A stretch of DNA of 64,000 nucleotides from an uncultured bacterium (GCA_963705505.1 CAVPJU010000010.1:480001-544000); one strand, 5' to 3'. Counted from the first letter of the stretch, positions 4,761 through 61,159 are shown. Translations and numbers: made by a program. The notes: generated by a model from the letters alone, not told the origin.

Positions 4761-4936
4761 CTCTATCTTATTTCACGGATATTGAGATCATCATCGTAGC
4801 CCTCGTAATATTCCTTACGGCTTTCGTGGCGATCGTGCTCTGGGCACTCAGAAAGCCGAAGGCGGAGATCGAGGAAATGGAGCGACTTCCCCTCGAGGAC
4901 GAGGGCGTCAAAATAAAGGAGAATGTCAATGACTGA
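4745..4936 (+). CDS. ccoQ: cbb3 oxidase subunit CcoQ (absent from the ORF track; no canonical start codon)
   Basis: Open frame (I)INQIALSYFTDIEIIIVALVIFLTAFVAIVLWALRKPKAEIEEMERLPLEDEG...TGA between ccoNO and ccoP: one TM helix plus an LPLED tail. First plausible start is ATC at 4745. Confidence 0.8.
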   Translation: MINQIALSYFTDIEIIIVALVIFLTAFVAIVLWALRKPKAEIEEMERLPLEDEGVKIKENVND

Positions 4937-11320: not shown

Positions 11321-11667
11321 CTCCCTTAACAGCTTGCAAGGAGCATACCATGTGAGTTGAGGGCTCCGGGTGTTGTGCGGATGCAGCTTTAAGCTCACTA
11401 CGTCAGATCACCGATTTCACTGAGATAACGGGTAAATACGCTCATGTTATATCGAGGATGCATATTTTGTACGCTCATGCGAAGGGAGAAGCCCTGCTTG
11501 CCCGAGGTTACTGTTTGCCGATATGGAAATCGTATTGTCATAATTTAAGACATACGACAGGGGGAGTTAATATCCCTCTAAGGAATATTTAAATCAGGTG
11601 ATAGATAGAATCTGCAAAGGCAGTGATTAAATTAGTTCTGAAACAGCCGGGAGGGCTGGAATTGTCG

Positions 11668-13080: not shown

Positions 13081-13084
13081 GACG

Positions 13085-14422: not shown

Positions 14423-14687
14423 CCTTTCACTACATCCGTCCGTAATTCCGAAACAAGTCCCGTGCTGCGACATGGGATCCACTCAGAATCCGTTAAAGGC
14501 CATTATTATAATGTGATACACGCAACGATAGGGCGCCCTAACAAGCTTCCCCGTAATTTTATTGCTTACACAGAAATTATTCAATATTTTTAAGACATGA
14601 ACGGAGTGTTTATAAAAAACCGGAACGTCTGATTCGGCTATCGGCGAGACCCGCATCGAGGAATGGAGTCGACCTCTACAGGAACGG

Positions 14688-19573: not shown

Positions 19574-19664
19574 ATTGACCTCCCTTAAGAACAATCAAGC
19601 AACCTATTGAAGCCGGAGCTTGTATATGAATTTGCATGCTCCGGCTGATTGTGTATGCCATAAT

Positions 19665-27876: not shown

Positions 27877-27930
27877 AAACTCCTCCGAACTCCTTGATGT
27901 GCTGCCCAAAGTTTACGTCACATTAGAGAG

Positions 27931-29349: not shown

Positions 29350-29685
29350 ATTACCCCCGATTTGGTTATAGTTACTCCCTGATTTCGCGCAATAAGACCG
29401 GCTACAAAATTTTATACCGATCATTAAATACTTTATGAGGTATCTCAACGAATGTCTATCAAAATTTCGCAAGAAAACAAAAAATCAAACCTTTATTAAT
29501 GATAAGAGGATATGATAAAGAATGAAAGAAGATAAACTTTCGGTCGGGGCCTCGATTTTCTTACAAAATCAGAAACGGCGGAATATATTTCCGGGACCGA
29601 CTCCGATTCGTATCCGTTCCGCTAATAAACCCCTTATGCCGCTTTAAGGTCGGCAGTTCATAAGAGATTCGAAGAAGAATAGCCG

Positions 29686-47615: not shown

Positions 47616-49856
47616 ATGACCATGAAGGGTAGGGTGAGCATACTAAGCAAGGTAGTATTCCGTTCTTTTCTGTTCCGGGCTTTTATTTTTTCTTTCCTGC
47701 TGATATCAGTTTACGGTGGATGTAGCGGAGGTGGAGGAGGAGTGGTTCCCCCGCCGCCACCGCCGACTATAGAGGGAAACAAGCTCAATATCCAGATACT
47801 CAACGCTATCATAGGTCCGGACAACCATCCTGTAGCAACAATTAAAATCACAGATGAAAGGGGAAACCCTTTGCAACCTACCGACCTAGATCAATTACGC
47901 CTCATAATCGCGAGGATTGTGGACTCGGGTGAATACATAGACTACATAACGACTAACGAGGATGGAGCCATTCTGCCGTACCGTGAGGATAGTTCCTTGG
48001 GCACGTTCAACGGCCAGGGGGGAGGCGTTTATACCTATACGTTTGCATTTATGCTTCCGCAGGGCTATGACGGCAGCCAGACACACACGGTAGCACTTTA
48101 CGGGTCAAGAAAGGTAGGAAGCCAGACCTGGGTCTCAAACGCTACTTTCGACTTCGTGCCCAACGGGGGCGAAGTCAGGACAATAAGGGACATCGTGAGC
48201 GTCAACTCATGCAATAATTGCCATGACCCTCTTGCCGTACACGGAGGACGCAGGAGAGACCCGAAGCTCTGTATAACATGCCACACATCAAAGATAATCA
48301 ATCCCGATACAGGTCAAGAAGAGGATCTGGTCGACCCCGCTACAGGGAATAGTATCGCCTTTAAGGTTATGATACACAAGATACACATGGGCGAGAGCCT
48401 ACCGAGCGTTATGGACGGCTTTCCCTATATGATAGGTAATAGCGACTTCTCGAGCGTAGTGTTCCCCCAGGACATAAGAAATTGCACGAAGTGCCACGAC
48501 GAGTCCCAAGCGTCCCAGGCTGACGACTATAAGAACGTCCCCACCAGGGCTGCCTGCGGCTCGTGCCACGACAACGTCGACTTCGCCACAGCTACCAATC
48601 ACCCCACGGTGCAGCTCAACGACAACAACTGCTCGGGATGTCATATACCGAGCTCGGGGAACGAATTCGATATATCGGTTACCGGAGCACATACAATACC
48701 GCTTAAATCAAAGACCCTCCCCGGAGTCGTTTTCGATATAGTGAGCGTGACTTCCGCGGAGACAGGCTCGAACAGGGTAGCCCCCGGTGAGCATGCCCAG
48801 GTGCTATTCAGCGTCAGAAACAATAATGGAGATGTTGTAAACCCTCAGGATCTCAATAGACTGTCTCTGACGATAGCGGGTCCCACTACAGATTACGATA
48901 TACAGGACTACCACGGCACAGGAGCGGTTCCGGGAGTAGATAACGTGCTCACAGAGAACGCCTTGAAAGCTTCAGACGGCCCCGACGCCGACGGCAACTT
49001 CGTTTACACATTTAAAGGCATGATCCCGTTGAACGGCTCAGGCACCTACGCGGTCGGCATAGAGGGCTACAAGACCGAGACGGTGGGCGGTGAGAACCAG
49101 ATACTAATCGAGGACGTAAGAGACGCGGGGCATAACGTAGTCAGCTACTTTGCCGTTACGGACCCGGTCCCGGTCCCGCGGAGGACGGTCGTCGACAACA
49201 ATACCGAAGACCAGTACTGCAACTCATGCCACGGGGAGTTCTCAAAGGACTTCAGCATCCACGGAGGCATCCGCAACAACACCCAATACTGCGTCCTCTG
49301 CCACAACCCTTCGAACGACGATATAAGCGTGAGGCCGGTCCCCGACTGGACGGGAAGCGACACTCCTACAACGACCTCGATCAATTTCAGGCAGATGATA
49401 CACAAGATACATACGGGCGAGAACCTTACCGTAACGCCTTACATAATCTACGGGTTCGGGGGAAGCCTGAATGACTTCAGCGACGTCCTCTTCCCGGGCA
49501 AGACGAATGACTGCGCCGATTGCCACGTGCCCAACACGAACATACTCGACCCGGGTATGGGCATACTGGGCCCTGGAATTTTACCGACCATCACCAGGGA
49601 GTTTACGAAGGTGGACGACGAGAACGTCGTTCTGAATACGTTCTCCTTGCAGCCGGTTATTACGGTCTGCACGTCCTGTCATGACGATGTAGGTGTAAAC
49701 GTCGCGGGGAATGCCCTTACGGGCGTGAACCACCTGGGAGGACCGCAGCCTGAGGGAGCGTGCATAAATTGCCACGCCGCGGGCGACCCTCTTGGCGCGG
49801 CGGAAGTGCATCTGGTTCCGCTCCCGTTTGATGAGCGTATAAACCGTCCCCAATAG
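47616..49856 (+). CDS. OmcA/MtrC-family decaheme c-type cytochrome lipoprotein
   Basis: 10 CxxCH in two pentaheme blocks, each with HGG.R and MIHKIH.G, preceded by YTYTF/FVYTF beta domains; YGGC lipobox followed by a Gly/Pro linker. Confidence 0.88.
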   Translation: MTMKGRVSILSKVVFRSFLFRAFIFSFLLISVYGGCSGGGGGVVPPPPPPTIEGNKLNIQILNAIIGPDNHPVATIKITDERGNPLQPTDLDQLRLIIARIVDSGEYIDYITTNEDGAILPYREDSSLGTFNGQGGGVYTYTFAFMLPQGYDGSQTHTVALYGSRKVGSQTWVSNATFDFVPNGGEVRTIRDIVSVNSCNNCHDPLAVHGGRRRDPKLCITCHTSKIINPDTGQEEDLVDPATGNSIAFKVMIHKIHMGESLPSVMDGFPYMIGNSDFSSVVFPQDIRNCTKCHDESQASQADDYKNVPTRAACGSCHDNVDFATATNHPTVQLNDNNCSGCHIPSSGNEFDISVTGAHTIPLKSKTLPGVVFDIVSVTSAETGSNRVAPGEHAQVLFSVRNNNGDVVNPQDLNRLSLTIAGPTTDYDIQDYHGTGAVPGVDNVLTENALKASDGPDADGNFVYTFKGMIPLNGSGTYAVGIEGYKTETVGGENQILIEDVRDAGHNVVSYFAVTDPVPVPRRTVVDNNTEDQYCNSCHGEFSKDFSIHGGIRNNTQYCVLCHNPSNDDISVRPVPDWTGSDTPTTTSINFRQMIHKIHTGENLTVTPYIIYGFGGSLNDFSDVLFPGKTNDCADCHVPNTNILDPGMGILGPGILPTITREFTKVDDENVVLNTFSLQPVITVCTSCHDDVGVNVAGNALTGVNHLGGPQPEGACINCHAAGDPLGAAEVHLVPLPFDERINRPQ

Positions 49857-49881
49857 GAATAGACCTAAGGACGAACCGAAT

Positions 49882-50202
49882 ATGAAAATGCTTGTCATGG
49901 TTATTCTGATGTCCTCACTGCTCACGCTAGTCTCGTGTGTGAGCAGTGAGGACGAGGGTCAGGACTGGGGCAATATACTTGCCGGCGTCGAGGGATTACA
50001 GCTGACTGAGCAAGACCACCCCGACGGATGGCAAAGGGAAGATTGTTTCGCGTGTCACCCGCTCGAGGTGATACACCAGGAAGACCGCTCGGGGCTGGGG
50101 GTCCTGCTGCTTCAGGACATACGTGAATTTACCGTACAGGAAGGGCTTTCGAGCTGTCCGATATGTCACGGAGATAATGGCGTACCAGCACTTATGGAGT
50201 AG
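49882..50202 (+). CDS. small diheme c-type cytochrome lipoprotein
   Basis: LVSC lipobox; CFACH and CPICH. Confidence 0.8.
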   Translation: MKMLVMVILMSSLLTLVSCVSSEDEGQDWGNILAGVEGLQLTEQDHPDGWQREDCFACHPLEVIHQEDRSGLGVLLLQDIREFTVQEGLSSCPICHGDNGVPALME

Positions 50203-50210
50203 TCTTTCAA

Positions 50211-51512
50211 ATGTCAAAACAGATTTTAGGTGCCGCAATAATATTGCTGCTCTCGGCGATGGGGGAGATTGCGGTATACGGGCAGGAGGAGATGATACGC
50301 CCGAGGAGCCTGGGCCTTTACGGAAACACCTTCTTGCTCTTTCAGGCTCCGACGCCGCTCCTCAACGCGGACGGCGATAAAAAGTACGTCTACCCTTTTT
50401 ATCAATACTTGGACTTAAGCTCCAACTATCCGGATCATAATGTGTACTTCAACACATACCTGAGAGGGAGAGAGATCTTTAACGGGGACCAGGATTCGCT
50501 CGACGTATATAACGCGTTCGTCGATATCTCGAACACCCCCGGCACGTACGAGATAAGGCTCGGCAGACAGACCATGACCGAAGGTATCAATTACATACTG
50601 ATGGACGGAGCCCTCGTCAGAATAAAGCCCCTGAAGGGGCTTGAGTTAACGGCCTACGCCGGATACCAGGAAAAAGACATTCAGCCCGATCCCGAAAGAC
50701 CCACTAACAACTTTGGAGTATTCGGAATAAAACTTAAAACGGACGCCATACTCGGCTCGATAATTTCAGTAGGGTATGAGCTCTACGACCCGCAAGACTT
50801 CTCATCGAGGCAGTTCATAAACCTGGCCTTCAACAGGGCCGTGCCATTCACTGATTACGCCGACGTGTACGCGCTCGCTGAGATCGATGTAGGGGAAGGG
50901 AACCTGGGCCTTCTCACGACAGGAGTGGGTATTGCCGTATTGAGGTCACTTTACCTCAACCTCGAATACGATAACTACAACCTGGACCAGGAGAGAGACC
51001 AGTTCAGACTCGATCCGATCTTCGATTTGTTTTCGGTCGGCAGGCTCCAGCAAGCAAGGGTCGGATTAACGTTCACACCCGCATCATTCCTTGAGATAAA
51101 CGGGAGTTACGCCTATTCACACTACGATCCCTCGGATGACAACGGTACGAACGGGAACATCGCAAAGCTCGGCTACATGTTCAATTTCTGGAAGGAGATC
51201 GGGCTCAGGGCGTTCCAGGGGTTTTACTATATCGACGGGAGCGGCAACACCGATTACGCGGTTGGTGTCAATACGAGCCTCTATGAAGAAATAAGGAATG
51301 GATGGCAGCTTGAGTTCGCTTTCGCATATGCTTACTATAACAAGATTACGAACCAGAGCGGAAACGCATTCAGCTACATAGTCGGCAACGAGTATGTGCT
51401 GAAGAAAGACCTCGTTTTGAGAACAGCGGTTGAGTTCAATACAAACCAGGATTTCCATAAAGACATAAGGGTGGATTTGGGATTAAGTTATTTCTTTTCG
51501 ACGAGCCTGTGA
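50211..51512 (+). CDS. outer-membrane beta-barrel protein (putative cytochrome porin)
   Basis: Signal peptide; Tyr/Phe/Gly-rich alternating strands; RLGRQ; C-terminal VDLGLSYFF; embedded among multiheme genes. Confidence 0.75.
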   Translation: MSKQILGAAIILLLSAMGEIAVYGQEEMIRPRSLGLYGNTFLLFQAPTPLLNADGDKKYVYPFYQYLDLSSNYPDHNVYFNTYLRGREIFNGDQDSLDVYNAFVDISNTPGTYEIRLGRQTMTEGINYILMDGALVRIKPLKGLELTAYAGYQEKDIQPDPERPTNNFGVFGIKLKTDAILGSIISVGYELYDPQDFSSRQFINLAFNRAVPFTDYADVYALAEIDVGEGNLGLLTTGVGIAVLRSLYLNLEYDNYNLDQERDQFRLDPIFDLFSVGRLQQARVGLTFTPASFLEINGSYAYSHYDPSDDNGTNGNIAKLGYMFNFWKEIGLRAFQGFYYIDGSGNTDYAVGVNTSLYEEIRNGWQLEFAFAYAYYNKITNQSGNAFSYIVGNEYVLKKDLVLRTAVEFNTNQDFHKDIRVDLGLSYFFSTSL

Positions 51513-52132
51513 TGAAAAGAGCACAATTGATTGTATTCATGCTCGCGGCAGCGCTTGCTGCGTGCGGAGCTCAGAACAAGGAACATGACGCCTCGGGGGC
51601 GAAGCCCAAGGTGCCGCTCGACGTGAGGATGAACTTCTCGCACGAGACGCATAAGAAGGTAATGGAGAAAGAGGGATTCCAATGTTTCGTATGCCATCCG
51701 ATGAACGTCAAGCCGAAAGACGAAAAGAGCATAGAAGAGGCCATAAAGATGTCGAAGCAGGCATTTTTCCCCGGAAAGGAGACTTGCCACTTCTGCCATT
51801 ATAACCCCGAGGCCGGCAACATTGCCCCGGGCCAATGCAGCTTATGCCATTTCAACATGGCCGAGATCGAGCCCAAGAACCACAACTTCAACTGGAGTGA
51901 AAAACACGCCATATTCGCGAAAGCCGACGAGGAATCGTGCCAGAACTGCCACGCGCCTAGATTCTGCGAGGACTGCCACAAGAGAAGAGACCTCCCTACC
52001 ATCATGGTCCACGACAGGAATTGGAGGTTCGTCCATGGAATAGAGGCTCGTGCGAACCCCAGGGAGTGCGGTAATTGTCACGAGATTACGTTCTGCAATA
52101 CCTGTCATACGAAGGGCGGATATGATTATTAG
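51509..52132 (+). CDS. heptaheme c-type cytochrome lipoprotein
   Basis: LAAC lipobox; FSHETH; CFVCH, CHFCH, CSLCH, CQNCH, CEDCH, CGNCH, CNTCH. Confidence 0.88.
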   Translation: MMKRAQLIVFMLAAALAACGAQNKEHDASGAKPKVPLDVRMNFSHETHKKVMEKEGFQCFVCHPMNVKPKDEKSIEEAIKMSKQAFFPGKETCHFCHYNPEAGNIAPGQCSLCHFNMAEIEPKNHNFNWSEKHAIFAKADEESCQNCHAPRFCEDCHKRRDLPTIMVHDRNWRFVHGIEARANPRECGNCHEITFCNTCHTKGGYDY

Positions 52133-52703
52133 GTACATTCTTACAGCTATGTTGATAGTGCTCCTCCCAACTGTCCTTCTGTCGAAGGAAAAAGAAAAAG
52201 AGGAAGAGGAGGAAAACCCTCATACCGCTATGGTTGGCAACGAGTTCGGATGCCTCGACTGCCATACGGAGGTGCCCAAGGAGGGGATGAAGAGCCCGAC
52301 GTATTTCCTCGTGGACGCGCCCTCGGAGAACTGCCTCGGGTGCCACGACGAGACGATGCACCCGGGGTCGAAGGAGCACGAGGGGAAGGAAGCGAAACCG
52401 CTCCCCGGGGACGAGAACGGCAAGATAGCGTGCTTCACCTGCCACGACCCGCACCCGGAGGGGGTGATAAAGGGGAGGAAGGTGTACGGGGCTGAGCTCG
52501 ACCAGAGGAGCATGGATTTCATGAGACTCATAGTGGGGCCCGAGCTCGGGAAAGAGCTGGGTACATCGATAGAGTTCGATCCCGACAAAAAGGTCTATCT
52601 CAGGGAGCCGATGAACAAGGTATGCAGCACATGTCATGAAACAATAAAATACAAGGGGGTCTATACACCATGGTACAAATTTTCAGAAATGTTTACGTAT
52701 TAG
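52122..52703 (+). CDS. tetraheme periplasmic c-type cytochrome
   Basis: Signal peptide from MIIRYIL; CLDCH, CLGCH, CFTCHDPH, CSTCH. Confidence 0.85.
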   Translation: MIIRYILTAMLIVLLPTVLLSKEKEKEEEEENPHTAMVGNEFGCLDCHTEVPKEGMKSPTYFLVDAPSENCLGCHDETMHPGSKEHEGKEAKPLPGDENGKIACFTCHDPHPEGVIKGRKVYGAELDQRSMDFMRLIVGPELGKELGTSIEFDPDKKVYLREPMNKVCSTCHETIKYKGVYTPWYKFSEMFTY

Positions 52704-53146
52704 CTTTAATGCTCATAATCCCCGCGGCGGCTTTCGCTCAGGACACGAGCGTACAGCAGAAGGGGATAGAGATATTCGTCGAGCATAGGTGTTATACCTG
52801 CCATACAGTTAAGGCGGAAGCCGCGCAGATAGACGCGGCAAAAGTCGCCTTTGCCAAAACGAAGGGAGTCGAATCCAAGGAGACTGCAGAAGAGAAGGAA
52901 GAGCCCAAAGGCGGCGACCTCTCCAACATAGGGACCGACAGGACTCAGGAATGGCTTACTAAATTTCTGAAAGACCCGAAGGATTATTTCAAGGACACTC
53001 CTGACTGCAAGAAACTCGCGAAGAAGAAGGAGAGGAAGAAGTTCAAGGGCACGGACGCTGAATTCCAGGATCTCCTGGCATGGCTCTCATCACTCAAATA
53101 CGGCGACAAGCAGGAAGCGGGCTTCAAGTCGTGCTTAAAAGAATAA
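52670..53146 (+). CDS. monoheme c-type cytochrome (paralog A)
   Basis: AFA signal peptide, CYTCH, GGDLSNIG, FLKDP. Confidence 0.85.
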   Translation: MVQIFRNVYVLALMLIIPAAAFAQDTSVQQKGIEIFVEHRCYTCHTVKAEAAQIDAAKVAFAKTKGVESKETAEEKEEPKGGDLSNIGTDRTQEWLTKFLKDPKDYFKDTPDCKKLAKKKERKKFKGTDAEFQDLLAWLSSLKYGDKQEAGFKSCLKE

Positions 53147-53218
53147 GTGTGTGACGATGACTACTTCGAATCGATTAAGCTTAAATTTAACGAACATCTT
53201 CAATATATTTGCAGTAAG

Positions 53219-53270
53219 AATCTATGTAAGGTGTCATAACATATGACACCTTACATAGATTTTAATTTTC
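53219..53270 (+). terminator. perfect 20-bp inverted repeat followed by a T-rich tract
   Basis: AATCTATGTAAGGTGTCATA-aca-TATGACACCTTACATAGATT-ttaattttc. Confidence 0.65.
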
Positions 53271-53318
53271 TCAAGAATAAATAGATAGTACATACGGGTA
53301 GTTATCGTAATACGAATG

Positions 53319-53334
53319 TGGCCTAAAATATGCA
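53319..53334 (+). promoter_or_regulatory. candidate sigma54 promoter for the monoheme-B/Rieske/cytb/HAO unit
   Basis: TGGCCT-AAAAT-ATGCA (GG-N10-GC), about 40 nt before ATG 53375. Confidence 0.55.
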
Positions 53335-53374
53335 CACTAAATTATAGTGAATGAATAATCGAGAGGTGTATATC

Positions 53375-53851
53375 ATGGTACATATTTACAGATATGTTTA
53401 CGCATTGGTACTGATATTAGCGGTATCCGCGTTAGCGCACGCCCAGGAAAGTAGTGTACAACAGAAAGGAATAGAGATATTCGTCGAACATAGGTGTTAT
53501 ACCTGCCACCAGATAAAAGCCGATCAGGATGCTATTCTAAAAGCAAAAGAAGCCTTAGCAAAGTCAAAAGGAGTTGAATTCAAACCAGAAGAAGAAAAAG
53601 GAGAAAAAGGGATAGCGCCCGACCTTTCGGATGTCGGCAAAAGATGGGATGCGAAATCACTTGAACCCTTTCTAAAAGATCCAAGACCTTACTTCAAGGA
53701 CACACCTGAATGTCAGAGTAATGCAAAGAAATTTTATAGAAAAAGATTTAAAGGAACACAAGACGACTTCAATGCTCTTATAGCCTACCTTACGAGCCTA
53801 AAATATGATTCATACAATAAAGATTTTGTATCATGCTTGAAGGAGCATTAA
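53375..53851 (+). CDS. monoheme c-type cytochrome (paralog B)
   Basis: GAGAGG RBS, AHA signal peptide, VQQKGIEIFVEHRCYTCH identical to paralog A. Confidence 0.85.
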   Translation: MVHIYRYVYALVLILAVSALAHAQESSVQQKGIEIFVEHRCYTCHQIKADQDAILKAKEALAKSKGVEFKPEEEKGEKGIAPDLSDVGKRWDAKSLEPFLKDPRPYFKDTPECQSNAKKFYRKRFKGTQDDFNALIAYLTSLKYDSYNKDFVSCLKEH

Positions 53852-53986
53852 TAACATTCTGGAGCAAGATTAGAAGTTTATTTTTTTCACGGCAAAAAAT
53901 TTAATTTCTCAGCAAGAAAACGTTTATCAATTAATTTAAGAGTATGAAATCTACGGCTTATACTCCTTCTCTTCGCGGGGATTGTT

Positions 53987-54502
53987 ATGGAAAAAGAAGA
54001 CGTCACATTAGATTCTTCCGAATCCACAAATGACAATCTGAAAGGAAACTCAAAGCGCGAATTTCTTTCCCAAATATTCCTAATACTTGGTGCTGTATTA
54101 GCTTATGGTCTGTTTGCGCTCGAAGGTATGTTATTTATCGTCCCGAAAAGAAGAGAAACAGAAAAAATAAAGATATACGGAGGCCGGCTGAGCCAATACA
54201 AGTTGGGCAGTGTGAAGGCATTTTATGATCTCGAAGGCAATGAAATTTTGATAATGCGGGACGAATCGGGACTCAAGGCTTTTAGCACAGTCTGTCCACA
54301 CTTGGGATGCAGAGTGCATTGGGAAAGCGACAAGAATGAATTTTTCTGTCCCTGTCATAAAGGGGTTTTTAACACAAACGGAGTTGCAATTTCCGGCCCG
54401 CCGGCGAAAGCCGGTCAAAGCCTGAGAAAAGTGTCCATAAGCGTCGATGAAAATAGTCAAATAGTGTATATAGAGGTAAATAAACCAAGGATCAAAGCCT
54501 GA
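53987..54502 (+). CDS. Rieske [2Fe-2S] subunit of a Rieske/cytochrome b complex
   Basis: Tat-like KREFL plus TM helix; CPHLGC and CPCHKG; SGPP. Confidence 0.92.
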   Translation: MEKEDVTLDSSESTNDNLKGNSKREFLSQIFLILGAVLAYGLFALEGMLFIVPKRRETEKIKIYGGRLSQYKLGSVKAFYDLEGNEILIMRDESGLKAFSTVCPHLGCRVHWESDKNEFFCPCHKGVFNTNGVAISGPPAKAGQSLRKVSISVDENSQIVYIEVNKPRIKA

Positions 54503-54504
54503 TA

Positions 54505-55581
54505 ATGAAGGGTAAATCCATACTATCCATAAATGGTCTCGTTAAAAAGTTAGACGAGATGTTTCCCTTTGATTGGGAAATACTGAGACAGGCAGGCGCA
54601 GAGCCTGTACCGCACCATTTAAAGAAATGGTGGTTTTGCCTGGGCGGTACGGTTCTTTACCTATTTATAATTCAGGTTTTAACAGGCATCGCGCTTACTT
54701 TTTACTACATTCCATACCCTCAGGAAGCCTTTCAGAGCATTGCCAGAATCACACAGGAGATAAGATTCGGATGGTTCATCCGTTCTTTGCACAGGTGGGC
54801 TTCTAATTTTTTAATTGTTGCGTTGTTCTTCCATATGTTCCGCGTCTATTTTACCGGTGCTTACCGACACCCCAGACAACTCAACTGGTTAATAGGATTC
54901 ATGCTTTTATTCATCGTTCTAACATTCGGTTTTACAGGATACTCGCTTATTTTCGAGCAACAAAGTTTCTGGGGTGCTACGGTTGCGACTAATCTCACGG
55001 ATGCCGTGCCGTTTGTTGGACATACCATCGCGTACTTTTTACGCGGAGGATCGGTTATCGGCGATAACACCCTGACAAGGTTCTTCATGCTCCATATAGG
55101 AGTCCTTCCGACATTAGCTTTCATTCTAATCGGACTCCACATTCTTTTAATCCGCCTTCACGGCGTTACGGAATTATACTTCGAGGGCGAAATTGTGCCG
55201 GATGAGAAGCGTTTTTTCCGTTTTTTGCCCGACCACGTAATTAACGAACTCATGCTCGGCGTACTGCTTCTTTACCTGCTTACAATTCTGGCATTAACTT
55301 TTCCTGTCGGTCTCGGCACACCCGCGGACCCAACCGTCACCCCGGAGCACATAAAGCCGGAATGGTATTTCTACTTCAATTTCCGTCTTCTTAAACTAAC
55401 CTCTCTTAACGTCAGTGTTGTCTTCACATTGTTTCTCTGCTTAGCGATTTTTTTATGGCCATTTATCGAAGAATTTTTGCGAAAAAAAATTAAATTCCCC
55501 GATGTTCTGTCGGTTATGCTCGGTCTTGTTTTTGTTCTGATATTTTTGCTTTTTACAGTGTGGGAAAGCTTTGCACCATAG
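54505..55581 (+). CDS. cytochrome b (fused b6 + subunit IV type)
   Basis: CLGG (heme ci Cys), RSLHRW, HMFRV, SFWGATV, RFFMLH...LH, KPEWY. Confidence 0.93.
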   Translation: MKGKSILSINGLVKKLDEMFPFDWEILRQAGAEPVPHHLKKWWFCLGGTVLYLFIIQVLTGIALTFYYIPYPQEAFQSIARITQEIRFGWFIRSLHRWASNFLIVALFFHMFRVYFTGAYRHPRQLNWLIGFMLLFIVLTFGFTGYSLIFEQQSFWGATVATNLTDAVPFVGHTIAYFLRGGSVIGDNTLTRFFMLHIGVLPTLAFILIGLHILLIRLHGVTELYFEGEIVPDEKRFFRFLPDHVINELMLGVLLLYLLTILALTFPVGLGTPADPTVTPEHIKPEWYFYFNFRLLKLTSLNVSVVFTLFLCLAIFLWPFIEEFLRKKIKFPDVLSVMLGLVFVLIFLLFTVWESFAP

Positions 55582-55607
55582 CAAATATATACTTGTGAGA
55601 GGCTATA

Positions 55608-57206
55608 ATGTCACTTAATGCAAAAAGATGGATCGTAGCTGGACTGTCATTTTTTCTGTTAGCAGCTCTTCTAATAGTTTCATATAGGGAATCGCAGCGA
55701 AAGCTCGTAGAAGAGAGGCAGGTTGCCATCGTAACAGCTGATAGCAGAGCATGCGTAGATTGTCATAAGACCGATCACCCCGCATTAGTGAAGGAATGGG
55801 AGTACTCCAAGCACGCTAGAGTCGGAATAGGTTGCGTCGAGTGTCATGCCGCTAATAGAAATGATACCGATGCCTGGAAACATGAAGGAGTATACATATC
55901 AGCCCTGGTTACCCCCCTTCGTTGTGCAAAATGCCACGAAAAGGAATATAAGGAGTTCGCTAACTCTCCCCATGCGAGAGCGGCAGAACTTATTTTTAAC
56001 CCGGATAACGCGCTAGCGGGAAAAACAGTTAAAGTTGCCGGACAAGGTAATGTTTCAAATATCGCAAGAAGTTGTCAGGAATGTCACGGAAGTATTATCA
56101 AGTTTCTAAGAGACGAAAAAGGCCAAATAGTCCGTACCGGCTCTCAGAAAAAGCCTTTTATAGATCCTGATACATGGCCTAACAGCGGCATTGGCAGGTT
56201 TAATCCCGACGGCTCCAAAGGCTCGTGTCATGCATGTCACTCACGCCATGCGTTCCAGGCTGAGCTCTCCCGCTCACCCCAGACCTGTGGTAAATGTCAT
56301 ATGGGACCGGATTATACAGAGATTGAGACCTATAATGAATCGAAACACGGCATTCTATTTTACCCAAACCGTGAAAGGATGGACCTTGACAAGAGAGGCG
56401 AATGGGTATTGGGACGGGATTATTCGGCCGCTCCTACCTGTGCAACCTGCCATATTAGTTCTTACATGTCGGCTCAAGGATTTGTTCAGAGTGGTTCTCA
56501 TAATGTAGGCGAACGAATAAGCTGGAACCTTTTACCTGTAATAAGTACGAAAGTAAATCTTGTTGTTTATGAAGACGGTTATAGTGAGGACTATCCCGAA
56601 ACAAAGGAAACACCGAATATAGGCGATGAAATCATTACAACCGAGACAGTGGTTGAGAATGAAAAGGTTGTAAACAAACAAGTGAGAAGAAAAGTTTCAG
56701 ATGTTATAAGTTCGGATGATAGAAGAGAAAAGATGATAGGGGTTTGTCTGAACTGCCACAACGACACGTATATAGATAATTTTTACAATCAGTACGATAA
56801 GTTTGTCGAGTATTATAACAATATATTCGCTGAACCGGCACAGAATCTCATGGACAGTTTACAAGCCGACGGCTTAATAAACCCGGGAGCTCCACTTGAA
56901 AGCCAGGTACAATGGGCGTTCTGGGACTTATTGCATCGTGGGGGAAGACAAGCAAGGATTGGCGCAAGCATGATGGGGCCGAGTATAACACGACAGGGTA
57001 TGTATCAAGTTTCAGAAACCTTTTATTCGAAATTCCTCCCTGCAGTAATAAACGCAGCAGCACAGAAAGGTCCTGATATGGAGAAAAAATATCGCATGAT
57101 GGTGGATAAAGAGCTTTCGCGTCAAGATCGTACGTGGATTGAGGAACCACTGCTGAATAAAACAAAATCGCCCAAAAAAACTGATAAACAAGGCTATGAG
57201 AAATAG
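55608..57206 (+). CDS. hydroxylamine-oxidoreductase (HAO)-family octaheme cytochrome c, N-terminally anchored
   Basis: 8 CxxCH; WPNSGIGR.NPDGS.GSC, CH.RH.F, ESKHG, APTCATCH, H.VGERISW, GASMMGP. Confidence 0.87.
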   Translation: MSLNAKRWIVAGLSFFLLAALLIVSYRESQRKLVEERQVAIVTADSRACVDCHKTDHPALVKEWEYSKHARVGIGCVECHAANRNDTDAWKHEGVYISALVTPLRCAKCHEKEYKEFANSPHARAAELIFNPDNALAGKTVKVAGQGNVSNIARSCQECHGSIIKFLRDEKGQIVRTGSQKKPFIDPDTWPNSGIGRFNPDGSKGSCHACHSRHAFQAELSRSPQTCGKCHMGPDYTEIETYNESKHGILFYPNRERMDLDKRGEWVLGRDYSAAPTCATCHISSYMSAQGFVQSGSHNVGERISWNLLPVISTKVNLVVYEDGYSEDYPETKETPNIGDEIITTETVVENEKVVNKQVRRKVSDVISSDDRREKMIGVCLNCHNDTYIDNFYNQYDKFVEYYNNIFAEPAQNLMDSLQADGLINPGAPLESQVQWAFWDLLHRGGRQARIGASMMGPSITRQGMYQVSETFYSKFLPAVINAAAQKGPDMEKKYRMMVDKELSRQDRTWIEEPLLNKTKSPKKTDKQGYEK

Positions 57207-57390
57207 AGCGCTCTCGGCGTGGCATGGTATTATTATAACTCTATTTCTGGTGATGCCCGGAATAATTATTCCGGATTTATAAACAGGGATTCAAAATATT
57301 ATGAGGGTAAAAAACAATAAGAATTATGGACATTTATAACACACACTTCCGTATTTAAAAATAAACGTCTAAAGGAGAAGAAATCCAGTC

Positions 57391-58107
57391 ATGTTCAAAG
57401 AGATAACAGATCTATTTGGAGTTACTGCGTCCAATGCCACAGGTTTAGTAAAAGGACTTAATGGGGGGATTGTTTCAGAAGATCCGGGAATGAGGCTTAT
57501 ATCATTCGTGGCTCTCGGTCTATGCCTCTTAACAATAGTTCTTGTCGTGTACAAACTTATATTCTTGCGAAGGGATTCTTCAATAGGTGTAACAACCAGA
57601 TGGATTTTTTTGATCACGTTTATAATCCTTTCCCCGCTGACTTATTTCATTAGTTTCGGCATTGGAATTGAAAAATCAAAGCCCGTTGAATTCTGTAACA
57701 ACTGCCATATAATGAACAGTCACGTGGAAGACATGAAGGACCCCGATAGCGAAAGCATTGCTTCCCTTCATTATAATAATCGCTGGATTTCCGACGACCA
57801 ATGTTACACCTGTCATTCGGATTACGGGCTTTATGGAGCAGTCGGAGCAAAATTTGACGGCATCAGGCACATAATGGATTACTACGTTATGGGTTATCCG
57901 AAGAAACTAAAGATACGGGGCACCTATAACAACGAGAGATGTCTTTTCTGCCATGCCCCTGTCGCATCTTATCAAGAAGTTAAAGAACATCAAGATTATG
58001 CGGCGGAAATCAAATCGAGTAAACAGTCTTGTTTCGGTTTAGACTGTCACGTTTCTCCCCACCCTGATGAAACAAAGGAAATAGAGGAAACCTGGAGGAC
58101 GAAATGA
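57391..58107 (+). CDS. NapC/NirT-like membrane-anchored tetraheme cytochrome
   Basis: Two TM helices; EFCNNCHIM, CYTCH, K.DGIRH, CLFCH and atypical CFGLDCH. Confidence 0.78.
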   Translation: MFKEITDLFGVTASNATGLVKGLNGGIVSEDPGMRLISFVALGLCLLTIVLVVYKLIFLRRDSSIGVTTRWIFLITFIILSPLTYFISFGIGIEKSKPVEFCNNCHIMNSHVEDMKDPDSESIASLHYNNRWISDDQCYTCHSDYGLYGAVGAKFDGIRHIMDYYVMGYPKKLKIRGTYNNERCLFCHAPVASYQEVKEHQDYAAEIKSSKQSCFGLDCHVSPHPDETKEIEETWRTK

Positions 58108-58316
58108 ATTCAAAAACAAATTATTTTAATGTATTTGTAATAATTGCCGGCACGCTAAACATCTTGGGAATGATTTTAATCATTATTCCTGTAGTTGAAC
58201 TTACCCCGCTTACACTGATTATCTCTGCAGTTTTTGGGGGAGGTTTAGTGATACTTTCAATTGCTATATACGCCGCAGTTGTAACAAGGGATCTTATAAG
58301 ACGTGGCATCCTCTAG
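58104..58316 (+). CDS. small 2-TM membrane protein
   Basis: 70 hydrophobic aa; ATGA-coupled to the NapC-like gene. Confidence 0.7.
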   Translation: MNSKTNYFNVFVIIAGTLNILGMILIIIPVVELTPLTLIISAVFGGGLVILSIAIYAAVVTRDLIRRGIL

Positions 58317-60445: not shown

Positions 60446-61159
60446 TCAGGCGAGGAGATTTTGAAGCGCGGATTTGTCCCTAATAACGGTAGTACGACGG
60501 CCGCAATCAATCAACTCCATTTTTTTGAACAGCTGAAGAGCCCTGCTGAGCGTTCTTCTCGACATGCCGGCCATATCCGCCATCTCCTCCTGACTCAGGC
60601 TGAGCTTTATAACGATCCCTTCCGGGGAGGGTTCGCCGAACTCATCGCAAAGCCTCAGGAGGAGCGAAGCGAGGCGCTCCTCGGACGTCGCTAGGGCTAT
60701 GTTCCTGAAACCTTCGTATGCTTTTGAGAGCTCTTCTCCGAGAGTCTCCGCCAGCCTCAGACATACGGGCCCGTTCTTTTTAAGCAGGCCCAGGAAATCC
60801 TCTTTATCTATAAAGCTCAATTGAGATTCCTCGACGGTCCTCGCGGTAAAATCATGGGGCTTTCCCGACAACGCCGCTCTCGCTCCGATCACGTTGCCGG
60901 CCGATGCGTAACCCAATACTGCACTTCTGCCGTCCTGGGAATGAATGTAAAGTTTGACGCGCCCGGAGCACACACAATAAACGCCGCGCGGTTTTTCTCC
61001 CTTCAGGAATAAGACGAAGCCCTCGGGATAAACGAGTCTCTGGAGCAAGCCTTCGAGCTCCAGAACGCCCGAATTATCGAGACCCGAAAAGATGCCGCCT
61101 GCCCTCAAGCTGCACGTATGACAGGTGTTATATTTCTGACGGGTTGGCGTTTTCCTCAT
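60446..61159 (-). CDS. Crp/Fnr-family transcriptional regulator
   Basis: N-terminal CHTC, cNMP-like beta-roll, ERLA, LSQEEMADMAGMSRRTLSR HTH. Confidence 0.92.
   Translation of the reverse strand: MRKTPTRQKYNTCHTCSLRAGGIFSGLDNSGVLELEGLLQRLVYPEGFVLFLKGEKPRGVYCVCSGRVKLYIHSQDGRSAVLGYASAGNVIGARAALSGKPHDFTARTVEESQLSFIDKEDFLGLLKKNGPVCLRLAETLGEELSKAYEGFRNIALATSEERLASLLLRLCDEFGEPSPEGIVIKLSLSQEEMADMAGMSRRTLSRALQLFKKMELIDCGRRTTVIRDKSALQNLLA

Follow-up and report, generated by a model that had tools for sequence, protein, structure and literature searches.

The locus at 47616-58316 of the 64,000-nt stretch of DNA analysed here (the window) is best read, with about even confidence, as a composite predicted operon of two respiratory modules with two anaerobic branches. 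Module A (genes 1-6 and 11-12) would be a self-sufficient porin-cytochrome-type pathway for extracellular electron transfer. Module B (genes 7-10) would consist of a duplicated monoheme cytochrome and a Rieske/cytochrome b6-type complex with an octaheme cytochrome in place of a c1 subunit. The trio of Rieske protein, cytochrome b and octaheme appears to have been inserted into module A, between the monoheme and NrfH genes, in this family.

The original prediction of 12 plus-strand genes with 37 heme c motifs, one of them CX4CH, proved exact on recount. All 12 co-directional ORFs lie on the plus strand at the positions it gave, and the motif count yielded 36 CXXCH (10+2+0+7+4+1+1+0+0+8+3 in genes 1-11) and one CX4CH (CFGLDCH, in gene 11). 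This density is far beyond chance: the whole 2.88-Mb genome holds 12 ORFs with at least two CXXCH motifs, and 6 of them are at the locus. The locus also encodes Rieske and cytochrome b proteins and a barrel for the outer membrane, and the Pfam assignments above cut-off are PF00355, PF00033 with PF00032, PF13447 and PF03264. Parts for every layer are present at one locus, as proposed, from inner-membrane quinol enzymes and periplasmic cytochromes to an outer-membrane barrel and an MtrC-type lipoprotein. The combination was also said to be uncharacterised, and no description of a conduit joined to a Rieske/cytochrome b/octaheme set was found in the literature searched. The cbb3 oxidase placed in the same region does lie within the window (2595-7655) but does not adjoin the locus, from which it is separated by ~40 kb and some 35 unrelated ORFs.

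The conduit genes and their short form

Gene 1 (47616-49856, 746 aa, 10 CXXCH) encodes an OmcA/MtrC-family decaheme cytochrome c. It scores 425.5 bits against NCBIfam TIGR03507 (OmcA/MtrC decaheme; cut-off 209.3), matches PF22113 (MtrC/MtrF domains II/IV) at E 8e-50, and its PDB sequence matches are MtrF, MtrC, OmcA and UndA. The N-terminus is of the lipoprotein type and is followed by a Gly/Pro-rich linker; (V/I)(Y/S)GGC and the poly-Gly/Pro linker are kept in 8 of 9 decaheme orthologues, the ninth having SLGC. The protein is presumed to be the surface terminal of the conduit. Gene 2 (49882-50202, 106 aa, two CXXCH) encodes a diheme cytochrome c lipoprotein with no family above cut-off in Pfam or NCBIfam; its lipobox (LVSC, LASC, IIGC or ALGC) and both heme motifs are kept in all 7 orthologues.

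The outer-membrane β-barrel (gene 3, 50211-51512, 433 aa) likewise matched no Pfam or NCBIfam family above cut-off. Its AlphaFold2 model has 22 strands (mean pLDDT 83.7, pTM 0.71), and the best Foldseek matches are the usher barrels FimD and PapC (TMq 0.53-0.56). The family is rare, with 78 matches at E<=1e-3 among 1.84 billion representatives. Gene 4 (51509-52132, 207 aa) encodes a heptaheme cytochrome c lipoprotein whose seven CXXCH motifs and lipobox Cys do not vary among all 11 sequences aligned; the full lipobox is seen in 10 of these (the row for L015 is N-terminally incomplete).

Modelling of the two proteins together, the kind of complex prediction originally suggested as a check, gave an interface with an ipSAE of 0.80 (runs 0.77-0.81) against 0.00 for the best of three controls, in a model that contains no hemes and may lean on the solved MtrAB complex. 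Of 157 solved complexes, 116 reach the mark set by the tool, as do 2 of 215 mismatched pairs; this calibration holds only roughly here, as our own alignments were used. Runs share at least 65% of contacts (partner pLDDT 60-62), and heptaheme residues 123-199 touch alternate, lumen-facing residues of the barrel. In this model the barrel is presumed to be the sheath of the conduit and the heptaheme the trans-barrel wire inside its 22 strands.

The tetraheme cytochrome c (gene 5, 52122-52703, 193 aa, signal peptide, four CXXCH) is presumed to be a periplasmic carrier. Its start was revised from 52050 and is probably 52122, since five of six printed orthologues begin at the corresponding Met; the N-terminus of the sixth (G036) has diverged. 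With this start, the overlap is 11 nt with gene 4 and 34 nt with gene 6. Gene 6 (52670-53146, 158 aa; PF00034, E 8e-8) encodes monoheme cytochrome c number 1, of class I fold. Its predicted axial ligand set is unusual: CYTCH, C113 and C155 do not vary across 15 sequences, and the mature protein offers neither a conserved Met nor a second conserved His. In profile alignments to PDB entries, Met80 of mitochondrial cytochrome c falls at residue 112, beside C113.

At the far end of the locus, gene 11 (57391-58107, 238 aa) encodes a tetraheme protein of the NrfH/NapC family that resembles a quinol dehydrogenase and is predicted to have two N-terminal membrane helices. It scores 37.9 bits against PF03264 (cut-off 24.1) and 45.8 against the NrfH model TIGR03153, below that model's cut-off of 134. 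CXXCHxM, two more CXXCH and the CX4CH are kept in all 11 full-length orthologues. Gene 12 (58104-58316) overlaps it by 4 nt and encodes a 70-aa hydrophobic protein with two membrane helices by eye.

Eight of these genes form a locus of their own in six relatives (G003, G007, G017, G020, G023 and G013), in the order decaheme, diheme, barrel, heptaheme, tetraheme, monoheme, NrfH, 70-aa gene. Judged by gene content, this short form is already a complete predicted quinol-to-surface pathway, and none of the six loci has a Rieske, cytochrome b or octaheme gene. The 70-aa gene follows NrfH in all six, as well as in G009 and L103. The original grouping of a "Rieske/cytb-HAO-NapC module" is contradicted here, as the NrfH and 70-aa genes close the operon in relatives that lack the Rieske, cytochrome b and HAO genes. 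Because the short form has NrfH without the trio, the NapC/NrfH gene belongs to the conduit and not to the HAO-like protein.

The Rieske/cytochrome b/octaheme trio and the 3' block

The trio begins with a Rieske [2Fe-2S] protein with an N-terminal membrane anchor (gene 8, 53987-54502, 171 aa; PF00355, E 2e-11). Its translation contains CPHLGC and CPCH, and in NCBIfam it comes closest to Rieske models of the b6f type, without reaching their cut-offs. The cytochrome b (gene 9, 54505-55581, 358 aa; PF00033, E 7.5e-55; PF00032, E 4e-10) fuses a b6-like and a subunit-IV-like part and scores 219.8 bits against the ExtP model NF040969 (under the cut-off of 290) and 211 bits against the cytochrome b6 model. 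Gene 10 (55608-57206, 532 aa, eight CXXCH; PF13447, E 4e-23) encodes a membrane-anchored octaheme cytochrome c of the HAO/IhOCC clade with a hydrophobic N-terminus, and occupies the position that cytochrome c1 holds in the gene order of bc1 operons. Its best solved relative is IhOCC (4qo5; E 1.5e-46, or 4e-58 with a profile), whereas classical HAO matches only over residues ~204-310, which carry the fifth to seventh CXXCH motifs. Tyrosines 466, 473 and 495 are conserved, and a cross-linking tyrosine may be among them. IhOCC is an octaheme nitrite reductase without the P460 cross-link, according to the part of PMC9250108 consulted. The substrate proposed for gene 10 would be taken from this relative, to which similarity is weak outside the core.

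Among the best 80 octaheme loci from other genomes, the Rieske and cytochrome b genes lie directly upstream of the octaheme at 38, and a further 3, each at a contig edge, show only cytochrome b there; the other 39 have lone octahemes. No tblastn match to the decaheme, diheme, barrel, heptaheme, tetraheme, monoheme or 70-aa gene was found at these 80 loci, and an NrfH-like gene was found at one (L021). No further multiheme ORF lies within about 4-6 kb at 11 of the 13 loci inspected, and in other phyla genes for Crp/Fnr regulators, a NapA-type molybdoenzyme and Alginate_exp-type porins are among those found nearby. From these contexts the trio is a stand-alone unit spread over many phyla, and the absence of conduit genes beside it implies that its usual job needs no conduit. 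The stand-alone trio most likely carries out quinol oxidation via a Q-cycle and reduction of nitrite, NO or hydroxylamine at the octaheme.

In the long form, found in a few genomes of the family, a second monoheme gene and the trio sit between monoheme 1 and NrfH. The halves were expected to be syntenic elsewhere, and conduit genes do lie beside an orthologous octaheme in all six further assemblies examined. The long-form order recurs in G009 (all 12 genes), L102, L103, L101, G016 and L021; G001 agrees as far as its contig runs, to just past the second monoheme, and a contig from another run (X5 record 29) spans the junction of the two monohemes. This order is common to two genera with different NrfH types and to three metagenome contigs. 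The monoheme paralogue accompanies the trio in every long-form case, and NrfH is kept in all five long-form assemblies whose sequence extends to it. Apart from this genome, G009 alone among the species representatives has all 12 genes, and its barrel gene is split over two frames with a TGA. Decaheme genes occur in 15 of the 41 genomes searched and the barrel in 16, while an octaheme orthologue (at least 75% identity) occurs in 3 of the 41, in 4 of 33 of the family and in 4 of 120 of the phylum.

The second monoheme (gene 7, 53375-53851) is the first gene of the block that appears to have been acquired. It is a paralogue of monoheme 1 (55% identity by tblastn), and its start is probably at 53375 because relatives carry a stop codon upstream. 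Composition changes abruptly at this point. GC3 is 0.61-0.72 in genes 1-6 and 0.31-0.48 in genes 7-12, against 0.62-0.77 in 14 other window genes; it falls from 0.62 in monoheme 1 to 0.34 in monoheme 2. The same break is seen in all four other long-form loci of the genus, and the block 53375-58316 is compositionally foreign in this genus. NrfH in the short-form loci of the genus is host-like in composition; the cassette NrfH is only 47-53% identical to short-form NrfH and adds a 19-aa N-terminal extension. These features suggest that the 3' block, from monoheme 2 to the 70-aa gene, was acquired horizontally and replaced the native NrfH end. With the trio standing alone in many phyla and its block apparently acquired in this genus, the locus would be composite rather than one evolved system, and the idea of a single ancestral system is not borne out.

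A hairpin found by terminator scan (53217-53263, plus strand), a perfect 20-bp stem with a T-rich run after it, lies in the spacer (228 nt) that separates the two monoheme genes and coincides exactly with the composition break. The folding z of the spacer is -5.97 against shuffles. The spacer is kept with a shorter stem in G009, G001, L102 and L103, and in G016 it is replaced by about 20 nt without a hairpin. The element is a possible attenuator, terminator or protein-binding palindrome, and the hairpin and T-run could end transcription between the two halves.

Relation to known systems

Three precedents come closest: the Geobacter ext cluster, the Rieske/cytochrome b-eHao locus of Caldithrix and the anammox R/b-3 complex. 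The part of PMC5877670 consulted describes Geobacter sulfurreducens extHIJKLMNOPQS as one cluster in which a Rieske/cytochrome b pair (ExtO and ExtP) occurs with a porin-like outer-membrane protein and several multiheme cytochromes, and ExtP is the best-scoring named model for the locus cytochrome b, at the sub-threshold score given above. The locus differs in its 358-aa cytochrome b with a subunit-IV-like fusion (ExtP is 23 kDa) and in having neither a rhodanese nor the ExtKL selenoprotein. No HAO-like octaheme or MtrC-like decaheme is named in the gene list of that paper, as far as it was seen.

In Caldithrix abyssi, Rieske and cytochrome b genes, unaccompanied by a monoheme c1, are neighbours of the HAO-family octaheme eHao in the Nap locus, and a quinol to Rieske/cytochrome b to eHao route has been proposed for nitrite reduction (PMC5317091, in excerpt). 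At a Calditrichaceae locus (L024), a NapA-type gene lies downstream of the trio. This genome, however, lacks nap genes (ActB and NuoG are the only molybdopterin enzymes found), and the trio sits within an extracellular electron-transfer operon.

The anammox R/b-3 complex (kuste4569-4574) is encoded with the HAO-like Kuste4574, for which NO production from nitrite has been suggested, not demonstrated, in the portion of PMC12485887 available. At 12 loci labelled as anammox genera or Brocadiaceae, the octaheme is 51-58% identical to gene 10, yet no tblastn match to Rieske or cytochrome b was found in the fetched flanks, and the neighbours at the two loci scanned with Pfam are ClC channels and hemerythrin. 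The anammox parallel drawn in the original prediction is an analogy. IhOCC of Ignicoccus hospitalis, the closest solved relative, aligns from heme 2 to the C-terminal helices and is also membrane-associated, but it is archaeal and its physiological role is described as hypothetical (PMC4429474, in excerpt).

On the conduit side, the locus shares with Shewanella MtrCAB/OmcA and CymA a surface decaheme lipoprotein from one family (gene 1 exceeds the TIGR03507 cut-off), a cytochrome inside an outer-membrane barrel (here modelled) and an inner-membrane tetraheme of the NapC/NrfH family. Unlike Mtr, it has no MtrA/DmsE-type decaheme; the inner wire is the 207-aa heptaheme lipoprotein, which has no match to TIGR03508, a model that weakly matches other genes. 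Its 433-aa barrel with 22 modelled strands has no MtrB_PioB match, diheme, tetraheme and monoheme genes are added, and the quinol enzyme lies within the same operon.

Electron flow in the proposed composite operon

Electrons might instead run inwards, with the conduit drawing them from Fe(II), reduced humics, minerals or a partner cell and the monohemes passing them to the octaheme, for nitrite or NO reduction, or to oxidases. We consider this unlikely. Its genome marks the bacterium as an aerobe or microaerobe, with three heme-copper oxidases (cbb3 and two A-type), and near-identical DNA occurs in soil and freshwater-sediment runs, with 90-99% likeness in wetland and groundwater runs; the sequencing-run search found the locus in no RNA runs. 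Such habitats commonly have redox gradients. The short form also resembles the Sideroxydans Mto set (MtoA, MtoB, MtoD and the NapC/NirT protein ImoA), likewise a conduit with a class I monoheme and a NapC/NirT tetraheme in the parts of the sources consulted (10.1101/2022.01.10.475773; PMC13390432). However, the wire is a heptaheme where Mto has the decaheme MtoA, the surface decaheme is MtrC-like, from a family best known in metal reducers, and the monoheme, with its two invariant Cys, offers neither Met nor His as a candidate ligand. Neither RuBisCO in the genome nor Cyc2 or an MtoA-type decaheme among its 12 multiheme ORFs was found, and sequence leaves the direction of flow unfixed.

A single integrated outward pathway, the idea originally put forward, in which the Rieske/cytochrome b complex would run a Q-cycle on menaquinol and the octaheme, purely a wire in place of cytochrome c1, would hand electrons on by way of monohemes, tetraheme and heptaheme to the decaheme at the surface, appears improbable. 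Retention of NrfH, duplication of the monoheme and joint transfer of the block fit it equally well. The membrane-anchored octaheme follows cytochrome b in the c1 gene position at 41 of the best 80 loci, the monoheme paralogue came with the trio, and the insertion is within the operon. Two quinol enzymes for different potentials would parallel Geobacter, where different inner-membrane cytochromes serve different potentials. The ext cluster also couples similar parts (PMC5877670, in excerpt). Against this, the trio has no nearby conduit gene at 79 of the best 80 loci, an enzyme-type octaheme with a penta-coordinate heme would be a costly wire, and the monohemes lack a Met ligand; if His/Cys-ligated, they would probably be low-potential and poor acceptors from the Rieske protein. 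Were this pathway real, reduction of high-potential acceptors outside the cell, Mn(IV) or chelated Fe(III) for example, would be proton-motive, with NrfH serving lower-potential acceptors.

It is just as doubtful that the halves are functionally unconnected and share a transcript at most, the trio lying in a permissive spot or hitch-hiking with a replacement NrfH end: they are separable (six short-form loci; 38 stand-alone trios and 39 lone octahemes among the best 80 loci) and meet at a sharp composition break with a strong hairpin precisely at the joint, but the order is the same in two genera with different NrfH types and in three metagenome contigs, the trio always comes with the monoheme paralogue, the monoheme genes of G016 are only ~20 nt apart without a hairpin, and NrfH 3' of the insert would rely on read-through transcription.

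The composite operon remains the preferred reading. The genome separately carries a housekeeping Rieske/cytochrome b complex, so module B is an extra; ACIII and complex I are also present. Searches of the genome (93.6% complete) detected neither a nitrate reductase nor NrfA or NirS, and any nitrite would need an extracellular source. The analysis shows directly which genes the locus holds, their synteny, the break in composition, the fold of the barrel and its modelled interface with the heptaheme; for substrates, direction of flow and electron exchange between modules A and B, we infer the following scheme. The NrfH-type tetraheme and its 70-aa membrane partner would exchange electrons with menaquinol, and the monoheme and tetraheme would ferry them over the periplasm. 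The heptaheme lipoprotein would pass its C-terminal half through the 22-strand barrel, with the OmcA/MtrC-family decaheme and the small diheme lipoprotein forming the surface end. One operon would thus serve two co-regulated anaerobic branches, surface reduction of metals or humics and reduction of nitrite or NO, between which the paralogous monohemes could exchange electrons.

Layout of the cluster and its outer-membrane conduit

Twelve co-directional ORFs lie within 47616-58316 of the window, encoding in order a decaheme, a diheme, a barrel, a heptaheme, a tetraheme, monoheme 1, monoheme 2, a Rieske protein, cytochrome b, an octaheme, an NrfH-like protein and a 70-aa membrane protein. A script count of heme motifs gave 10, 2, 0, 7, 4, 1, 1, 0, 0, 8, 3+1 and 0 for genes 1-12 (36 CXXCH and one CX4CH), matching exactly the motif counts and the 12-gene tally of the original prediction. 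The entire 2.88-Mb genome, in which the window spans 480001-544000 of contig C10, has 12 ORFs with at least two CXXCH motifs, six of them inside this cluster. Adjacent genes overlap by 4 nt (3/4), 11 nt (4/5), 34 nt (5/6) and 4 nt (11/12) or are 2 nt apart (8/9), and gaps of 228, 135 and 184 nt precede monoheme 2, the Rieske gene and the NrfH-like gene, respectively. The start sites of the tetraheme (52122) and monoheme 2 (53375) were revised from orthologues.

The product of gene 1, with 10 CXXCH motifs, matches TIGR03507 (OmcA/MtrC decaheme) at 425.5 bits against a cut-off of 209.3 (residues 71-732) and PF22113 in two stretches (E 8e-50); its matches among solved structures are MtrF, MtrC, OmcA and UndA. 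An N-terminal GGC lipobox-like motif, followed by a poly-Gly/poly-Pro stretch, is kept in orthologues, 9/9 of which carry GGC or LGC with an atypical residue (Y or S) at position -3. By sequence, the decaheme is a member of the OmcA/MtrC family and a predicted surface lipoprotein. Lipoboxes are also conserved in the diheme (gene 2) and the heptaheme (gene 4).

The remaining parts differ from MtrCAB. In place of an MtrA/DmsE-type decaheme there is the heptaheme (7 CXXCH), which gave no match to TIGR03508, the model for that decaheme type; weak sub-threshold matches fell on other cluster genes. The barrel (gene 3) likewise lacks an MtrB/PioB match, and no Pfam or NCBIfam family exceeded its cut-off, the sole match being Alginate_exp (20 bits, cut-off 25.2). 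Its family is rare: of 1.84 billion representatives, 78 match it at E<=1e-3, and at 1e-30 the number is 9. An AlphaFold2 model built from an alignment of 39 relatives is a barrel of 22 strands (pLDDT 83.7), whereas the MtrB barrel has 26; the top fold matches by TM-score are the usher barrels FimD and PapC.

Modelling of subcomplexes, proposed originally as a check, was informative for the barrel-heptaheme pair, which reached an ipSAE of 0.80 (runs 0.77, 0.81 and 0.80) against 0.00 for the best of three controls, in a model without hemes. The runs agreed in at least 65% of contacts, with a partner pLDDT of 60-62. The ipSAE mark is passed by 116/157 solved complexes and 2/215 mismatched pairs, counts that apply only roughly here, where our own alignments were used. 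In the modelled interface, heptaheme residues 123-199 touch alternate strand residues all round the barrel lumen. This heme-free model, which may lean on the solved Mtr complex, supports but does not show a cytochrome-in-barrel arrangement, the predicted likeness being to porin-cytochrome conduits generally, with a multiheme cytochrome inside an outer-membrane barrel.

Short and long forms of the operon

To place the cluster among its relatives, 41 genomes (the window's own and 40 of the same order) were searched, and 12 fetched loci were compared by tblastn with the full set of 12 proteins. Of the 41 genomes, 15 have the decaheme and 16 the barrel; an octaheme orthologue (at least 75% identity) was found in only three, the window's genome (G000), G009 and G016. 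As sampled, the octaheme orthologue is present in 4/33 genomes of the family and 4/120 of the phylum, the fourth being G042.

Six genomes (G003, G007, G017, G020, G023 and G013) carry a short form that runs from decaheme, diheme, barrel, heptaheme and tetraheme through a single monoheme straight to the NrfH-like gene and the 70-aa gene. Since both the NrfH-like and the 70-aa gene are present in this form, they are part of the conduit operon; and since nothing lies there between monoheme and NrfH, monoheme 2, Rieske, cytochrome b and octaheme (genes 7-10) constitute an insert. The NrfH-like gene had originally been grouped with the Rieske, cytochrome b and HAO-type genes; the six short-form genomes, which lack the Rieske/cytochrome b/octaheme trio, assign it to the conduit instead. 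Partial conduits in G033 and G036, from other families, have conduit genes with NrfH undetected.

The long form, with the insert, is complete and in the window's order in G009. A 6-kb contig of G016, from another genus, carries the tetraheme, two monohemes, Rieske, cytochrome b, octaheme and NrfH, and the G001 contig ends just past monoheme 2. Three metagenome contigs (L101, L102 and L103) have the long form with octaheme identities of 81-89%; these are the 3 close loci used of the 9 from the metagenome scan, the other 6 being weak matches that were left out. A MAG contig labelled Thermodesulfobacteriales (L021) carries cytochrome b, octaheme and NrfH. The two halves are thus joined elsewhere, in G009, G016 and L101-L103, as had been anticipated. 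The prediction of one complete electron-transfer system is borne out for all 12 genes and their parts; it is not supported for a single unit, the insert being separable from the conduit. Three octaheme/decaheme cluster pairs share their longest-contig size (18497, 37826 and 27877), a circumstantial hint of more distant joined clusters.

Some conduit genes are broken in relatives. The barrel of G009 (L009 6759-8058) has a frame change and one TGA, and the decaheme is in two pieces at G007:C9 2217406-2219534 (one TGA) and G036:C7 600619-602740. These may reflect decay, recoding or assembly errors.

Codon composition changes within the window's operon. GC3 is 0.61-0.72 in genes 1-6 and 0.62-0.77 in 14 other window genes, and falls to 0.34 in monoheme 2, 0.42 in Rieske, 0.48 in cytochrome b, 0.40 in octaheme, 0.42 in the NrfH-like gene and 0.31 in the 70-aa gene. 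The break lies at the same joint in G009, G001, L102 and L103. The short-form loci of the genus have host-like NrfH and 70-aa genes (GC3 0.57-0.81), and the G016 locus is uniform at 0.45-0.55. The NrfH of the low-GC3 block is 47-53% identical to short-form NrfH, against 64-86% for conduit genes (decaheme 64-72%, the others 63-85%), and has a 19-aa N-terminal extension; the NrfH of G016 and L021 is the family's ordinary type. Judged by sequence, the 3' block (genes 7-12) is of foreign origin in this genus. In a proposed history of two steps, the trio and a duplicated monoheme would have been inserted into a conduit operon in some lineage, and the entire 3' end later transferred into this genus, replacing the native NrfH end. 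An assembly chimera at the composition break was ruled out, the same joint and a conserved 228-nt spacer being found in G009, G001, L102 and L103. Because the joint recurs in these four other assemblies and is bridged by a contig of another run (the only one to span the monoheme 1/monoheme 2 junction among short contigs from 4 DNA runs), it is not an assembly artefact.

Among relatives of the genus, the spacer is better conserved than its flanking genes. Exactly where GC3 breaks, it contains a perfect inverted repeat of 20 bp (53217-53263; core GTGTCATAACATATGACAC) with a T-rich tail; relatives have a shorter stem, and G016 lacks the spacer. Attenuation, RNA stabilisation and operator function are possible roles of this hairpin. 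Promoter and terminator scans gave counts not above those of shuffled sequence (20 versus 18.8 and 13 versus 12.2), with only the long hairpin standing out, and an Rfam scan of the window returned one tRNA only.

The inner-membrane components and their relatives

Gene 11 passes PF03264 (NapC/NirT; 37.9 bits, cut-off 24.1) and falls under the cut-off of TIGR03153, the NrfH equivalog (45.8 bits, cut-off 134), and is therefore a member of the NrfH/NapC/NirT family and not an NrfH equivalog. Its motifs, kept in 11/11 full-length orthologues, are a first CNNCHIM, two more CXXCH and one CX4CH; CXXCHxM as first heme motif is an NrfH signature. Two N-terminal hydrophobic helices are visible by eye; NrfH has a single one. 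Gene 12 encodes a hydrophobic protein of 70 aa with apparently two membrane helices.

The Rieske protein (gene 8) contains CPHLGC (CxHxGC) and CPCH (CxCH) and scores above the PF00355 cut-off. Cytochrome b (gene 9, 54505-55581) consists of b6-like and subunit-IV-like parts, with PF00033 and PF00032 above their cut-offs; among named models it scores best with ExtP from the Geobacter ext cluster (NF040969; 219.8 bits, under the equivalog cut-off of 290). Near its N-terminus it has the sequence WWFCLGG. In cytochrome b6 the Cys of the CLGG motif binds heme ci; if it does so here too, the complex would by analogy be b6f-like on the n-side. The c-type subunit after cytochrome b, beginning 26 nt downstream, is the octaheme and not a monoheme c1; elsewhere the octaheme takes that place in 41/80 loci (the best 80 of at least 580).

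The octaheme (gene 10) has 8 CXXCH motifs, a predicted membrane anchor and a match to PF13447 (HAO family; E 4e-23). Among solved structures, its nearest relative is IhOCC (4qo5; E 1.5e-46, with profile 4e-58), aligned over residues 40-471 in three stretches and described as an octaheme nitrite reductase without P460 (PMC9250108). Against classical HAO, the alignment covers the middle hemes only. The profile alignment with N. europaea HAO ends about 60 residues short of the cross-linking tyrosine, and sequence and profile searches with solved HAOs left the C-terminal region unaligned; conserved tyrosines lie at 466, 473 and 495.

The octaheme family is large, with 4552 matches at E<=1e-3 among 8000 candidates scored. 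Its loci were scanned with an alignment of 26 members, one genome per species, and the best 80 of at least 580 confirmed relatives were compared. Among these 80, 38 have Rieske and cytochrome b immediately before the octaheme, 3 show cytochrome b only, at the contig edge, and 39 have neither, 36 of them with 1.7 kb or more of sequence upstream. The MAG labels of the 38 trio loci include Zixibacteria, Calditrichaceae, KSB1, Binatia, Latescibacterota, Ignavibacteria, Acidobacteriota, Gemmatimonadota and Bacteroidota. In the same 80 loci, tblastn (E<=1e-4) found no match to the decaheme, diheme, barrel, heptaheme, tetraheme, either monoheme or the 70-aa protein, and the NrfH-like gene occurs in one, L021. 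By ORF inspection and heme count, 11 of 13 loci have no second multiheme ORF within about 4-6 kb.

Trio neighbours in other phyla include Crp/Fnr regulators (directly upstream of the trio in L022 and L023), Alginate_exp-type porins and a protoglobin sensor kinase, with a NapA-type molybdoenzyme in the Calditrichaceae locus. In the window, the minus strand at 60446-61159, 2 kb downstream of the cluster, encodes a Crp/Fnr-type regulator beside a ferredoxin and two radical-SAM genes. A conserved ORF of about 205 aa directly follows the octaheme in 16 of the best 80 of at least 580 loci, including L022, L023, L024, L043 and L055 (about 11600-12300). It belongs to no Pfam family, shows no obvious N-terminal hydrophobic stretch by eye and is apparently soluble; it has no counterpart in the window's genome and may be a fourth partner of the trio.

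Caldithrix and anammox bacteria provide precedents for a Rieske/cytochrome b complex joined to an HAO-family octaheme (PMC5317091, PMC12485887). The anammox parallel drawn originally did not extend to the loci compared here: in 12 loci labelled as anammox genera or Brocadiaceae, relatives and not Kuste4574 itself, the octaheme is 51-58% identical to gene 10 and the fetched flanks of all 12 gave no Rieske or cytochrome b match. Two of them with Pfam-scanned neighbours carry ClC channels and hemerythrin.

Monohemes 1 and 2 (52670-53146 and 53375-53851) are class I cytochromes with 55% mutual identity. Across 15 aligned sequences (both and 13 orthologues), CYTCH is invariant, as are RK.FKG and two extra cysteines, C113 (TP[DE]C motif) and C155 (SCLKE); neither a Met nor a second His is conserved in the mature part. 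Profile alignments place Met80 of mitochondrial cytochrome c at residue 112, adjoining C113; for R. rubrum c2, the Met ligand aligns with K123. These alignments make a His/Cys or His/Lys heme a reasonable guess. If His/Cys-ligated, the monohemes would be low-potential carriers, well matched to passing electrons to an MtrC-type wire or a reductase and ill suited to taking them from a Rieske centre.

Function of the joined locus

The conduit genes alone (genes 1-6, 11 and 12) would make a quinol-to-surface path, from quinol through the NrfH-like protein to monoheme and tetraheme, on to the heptaheme in the barrel and to the decaheme at the cell surface; the short form would therefore be the basic machine. 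In the insert, Rieske and cytochrome b are followed by a c-type subunit, a position taken by an octaheme of enzyme type. For Caldithrix, a path from quinol through Rieske/cytb to eHao has been proposed, and the same paper cites the idea of multihemes as Rieske acceptors in early bc complexes (PMC5317091); the anammox R/b-3 octaheme Kuste4574 is described as possibly making NO, a proposal given there as untested (PMC12485887). Because the octaheme takes the c-subunit place, and in the light of these reports and that on IhOCC, the insert may be read as a quinol:nitrite (or NO, or hydroxylamine) reductase conserving energy via a Q-cycle, which in this family would have been placed under the control of the conduit operon. 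This two-branch reading, with surface reduction and nitrite/NO reduction predicted from one operon, is given an even chance.

The host genome encodes complex I, alternative complex III, two A-type oxidases and a cbb3 oxidase (2595-7655). Next to one A-type oxidase is a second Rieske/cytochrome b complex that carries a fused c domain, and ActB and NuoG are the only molybdopterin proteins. In this 93.6% complete genome, DsrA, NrfA, NirS and RuBisCO gave no match over cut-off. A sulfate reducer was ruled out by the lack of DsrA over cut-off, and a nitrate ammonifier by the lack of NrfA over cut-off and of a Nap/Nar-type molybdoenzyme. Public relatives are labelled as Thermodesulfobacteriota or Deltaproteobacteria MAGs. 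Sequencing runs from soil and freshwater sediment contain pieces of nearly identical DNA, and those from wetland and groundwater contain pieces at 90-99% likeness; no RNA run was listed with a match to 49000-58316. From its gene content, the host looks like an aerobe or microaerobe keeping anaerobic options.

Further features of the window were recorded. The cbb3 cluster (119-7655), preceded by a heavy-metal P-type ATPase, comprises fused subunits I+II (721 aa, COX1 and FixO), FixP, a FixG-like ferredoxin and a DsbD_2-type protein. Two overlapping ORFs at 18004-19594 (minus strand) match halves of a sulfatase domain (profile 1-137 and 138-301), in what looks like a sulfatase split by a frameshift or sequencing error, and an intact 824-aa sulfatase adjoins them (19665-22139). 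Tandem paralogue pairs lie at 11668-14482 and 26428-29472 (minus strand), with two LssY_C-domain and two DUF1254/DUF1214 proteins.

Uptake of electrons from outside, to supply the octaheme or the oxidases, is an unlikely alternative to the two-branch reading; the cbb3 oxidase originally noted in the same region does lie within the window, though some 40 kb from the cytochrome cluster. The integrated wire of the original prediction, in which the Q-cycle complex feeds the surface conduit, has the joined long form in its favour; given an insert separable from the conduit and monohemes that, if His/Cys-ligated, would accept poorly from a Rieske centre, it appears distinctly improbable. NrfH is kept downstream of the insert in all five long-form assemblies reaching that far; the duplication of the monoheme, this retention of NrfH and the movement of the block as one piece suggest more than an accidental joining. 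Plain co-location without a functional link, compatible with the trio standing alone in other phyla, is accordingly a poor prospect, and would amount to ordinary operon mosaicism.

Each part of the locus is of a known kind. The conduit is, by its sequence matches, a new variant, with an MtrC-family surface protein and no MtrA or MtrB; divergent porin-multiheme conduits have been reported from many phyla (e.g. preprint 10.64898/2026.05.27.727921), and the Geobacter ext cluster is a precedent for Rieske/cytochrome b with a porin-like protein and multihemes (PMC5877670). Full-text literature searches, covering main texts and few subscription journals, turned up no account of the joined arrangement, of a 3' end resembling a cassette or of monohemes without the Met ligand, in keeping with the original statement that the combination was not known to be characterised.

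The significance of the locus rests on genomics and models. It presents a conduit type unmatched by MtrA/MtrB models (MtrC-like decaheme, rare-family 22-strand barrel and heptaheme lipoprotein), a Rieske/cytochrome b/IhOCC-like octaheme trio that is a common unit across many phyla, and a monoheme cytochrome family with an unusual predicted ligand set. How extracellular electron-transfer pathways connect to energy-conserving quinol enzymes, and how outside electrons reach soluble acceptors such as nitrite, are open questions. On these the family offers a natural experiment: one outer-membrane conduit with two inner-membrane ends, NrfH alone or NrfH with the Rieske/cytochrome b/octaheme complex, the second sitting on a transferable block. 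A bolder and rather doubtful proposal is that the long form is a hybrid machine in which a bc-type complex bearing a catalytic octaheme would be wired to an MtrC-type conduit by Met-less (possibly His/Cys) monohemes; the 3' block would then serve as a mobile and exchangeable adaptor at the inner membrane, re-plugging a conduit already resident. If true, such a machine would allow nitrite/NO reduction by outside electrons from Fe(II), reduced humics, minerals or partner cells; in the inward mode the Rieske/cytochrome b complex or NrfH would feed the quinone pool in reverse, and in the other mode a Q-cycle would draw proton-motive force from the reduction of extracellular acceptors.
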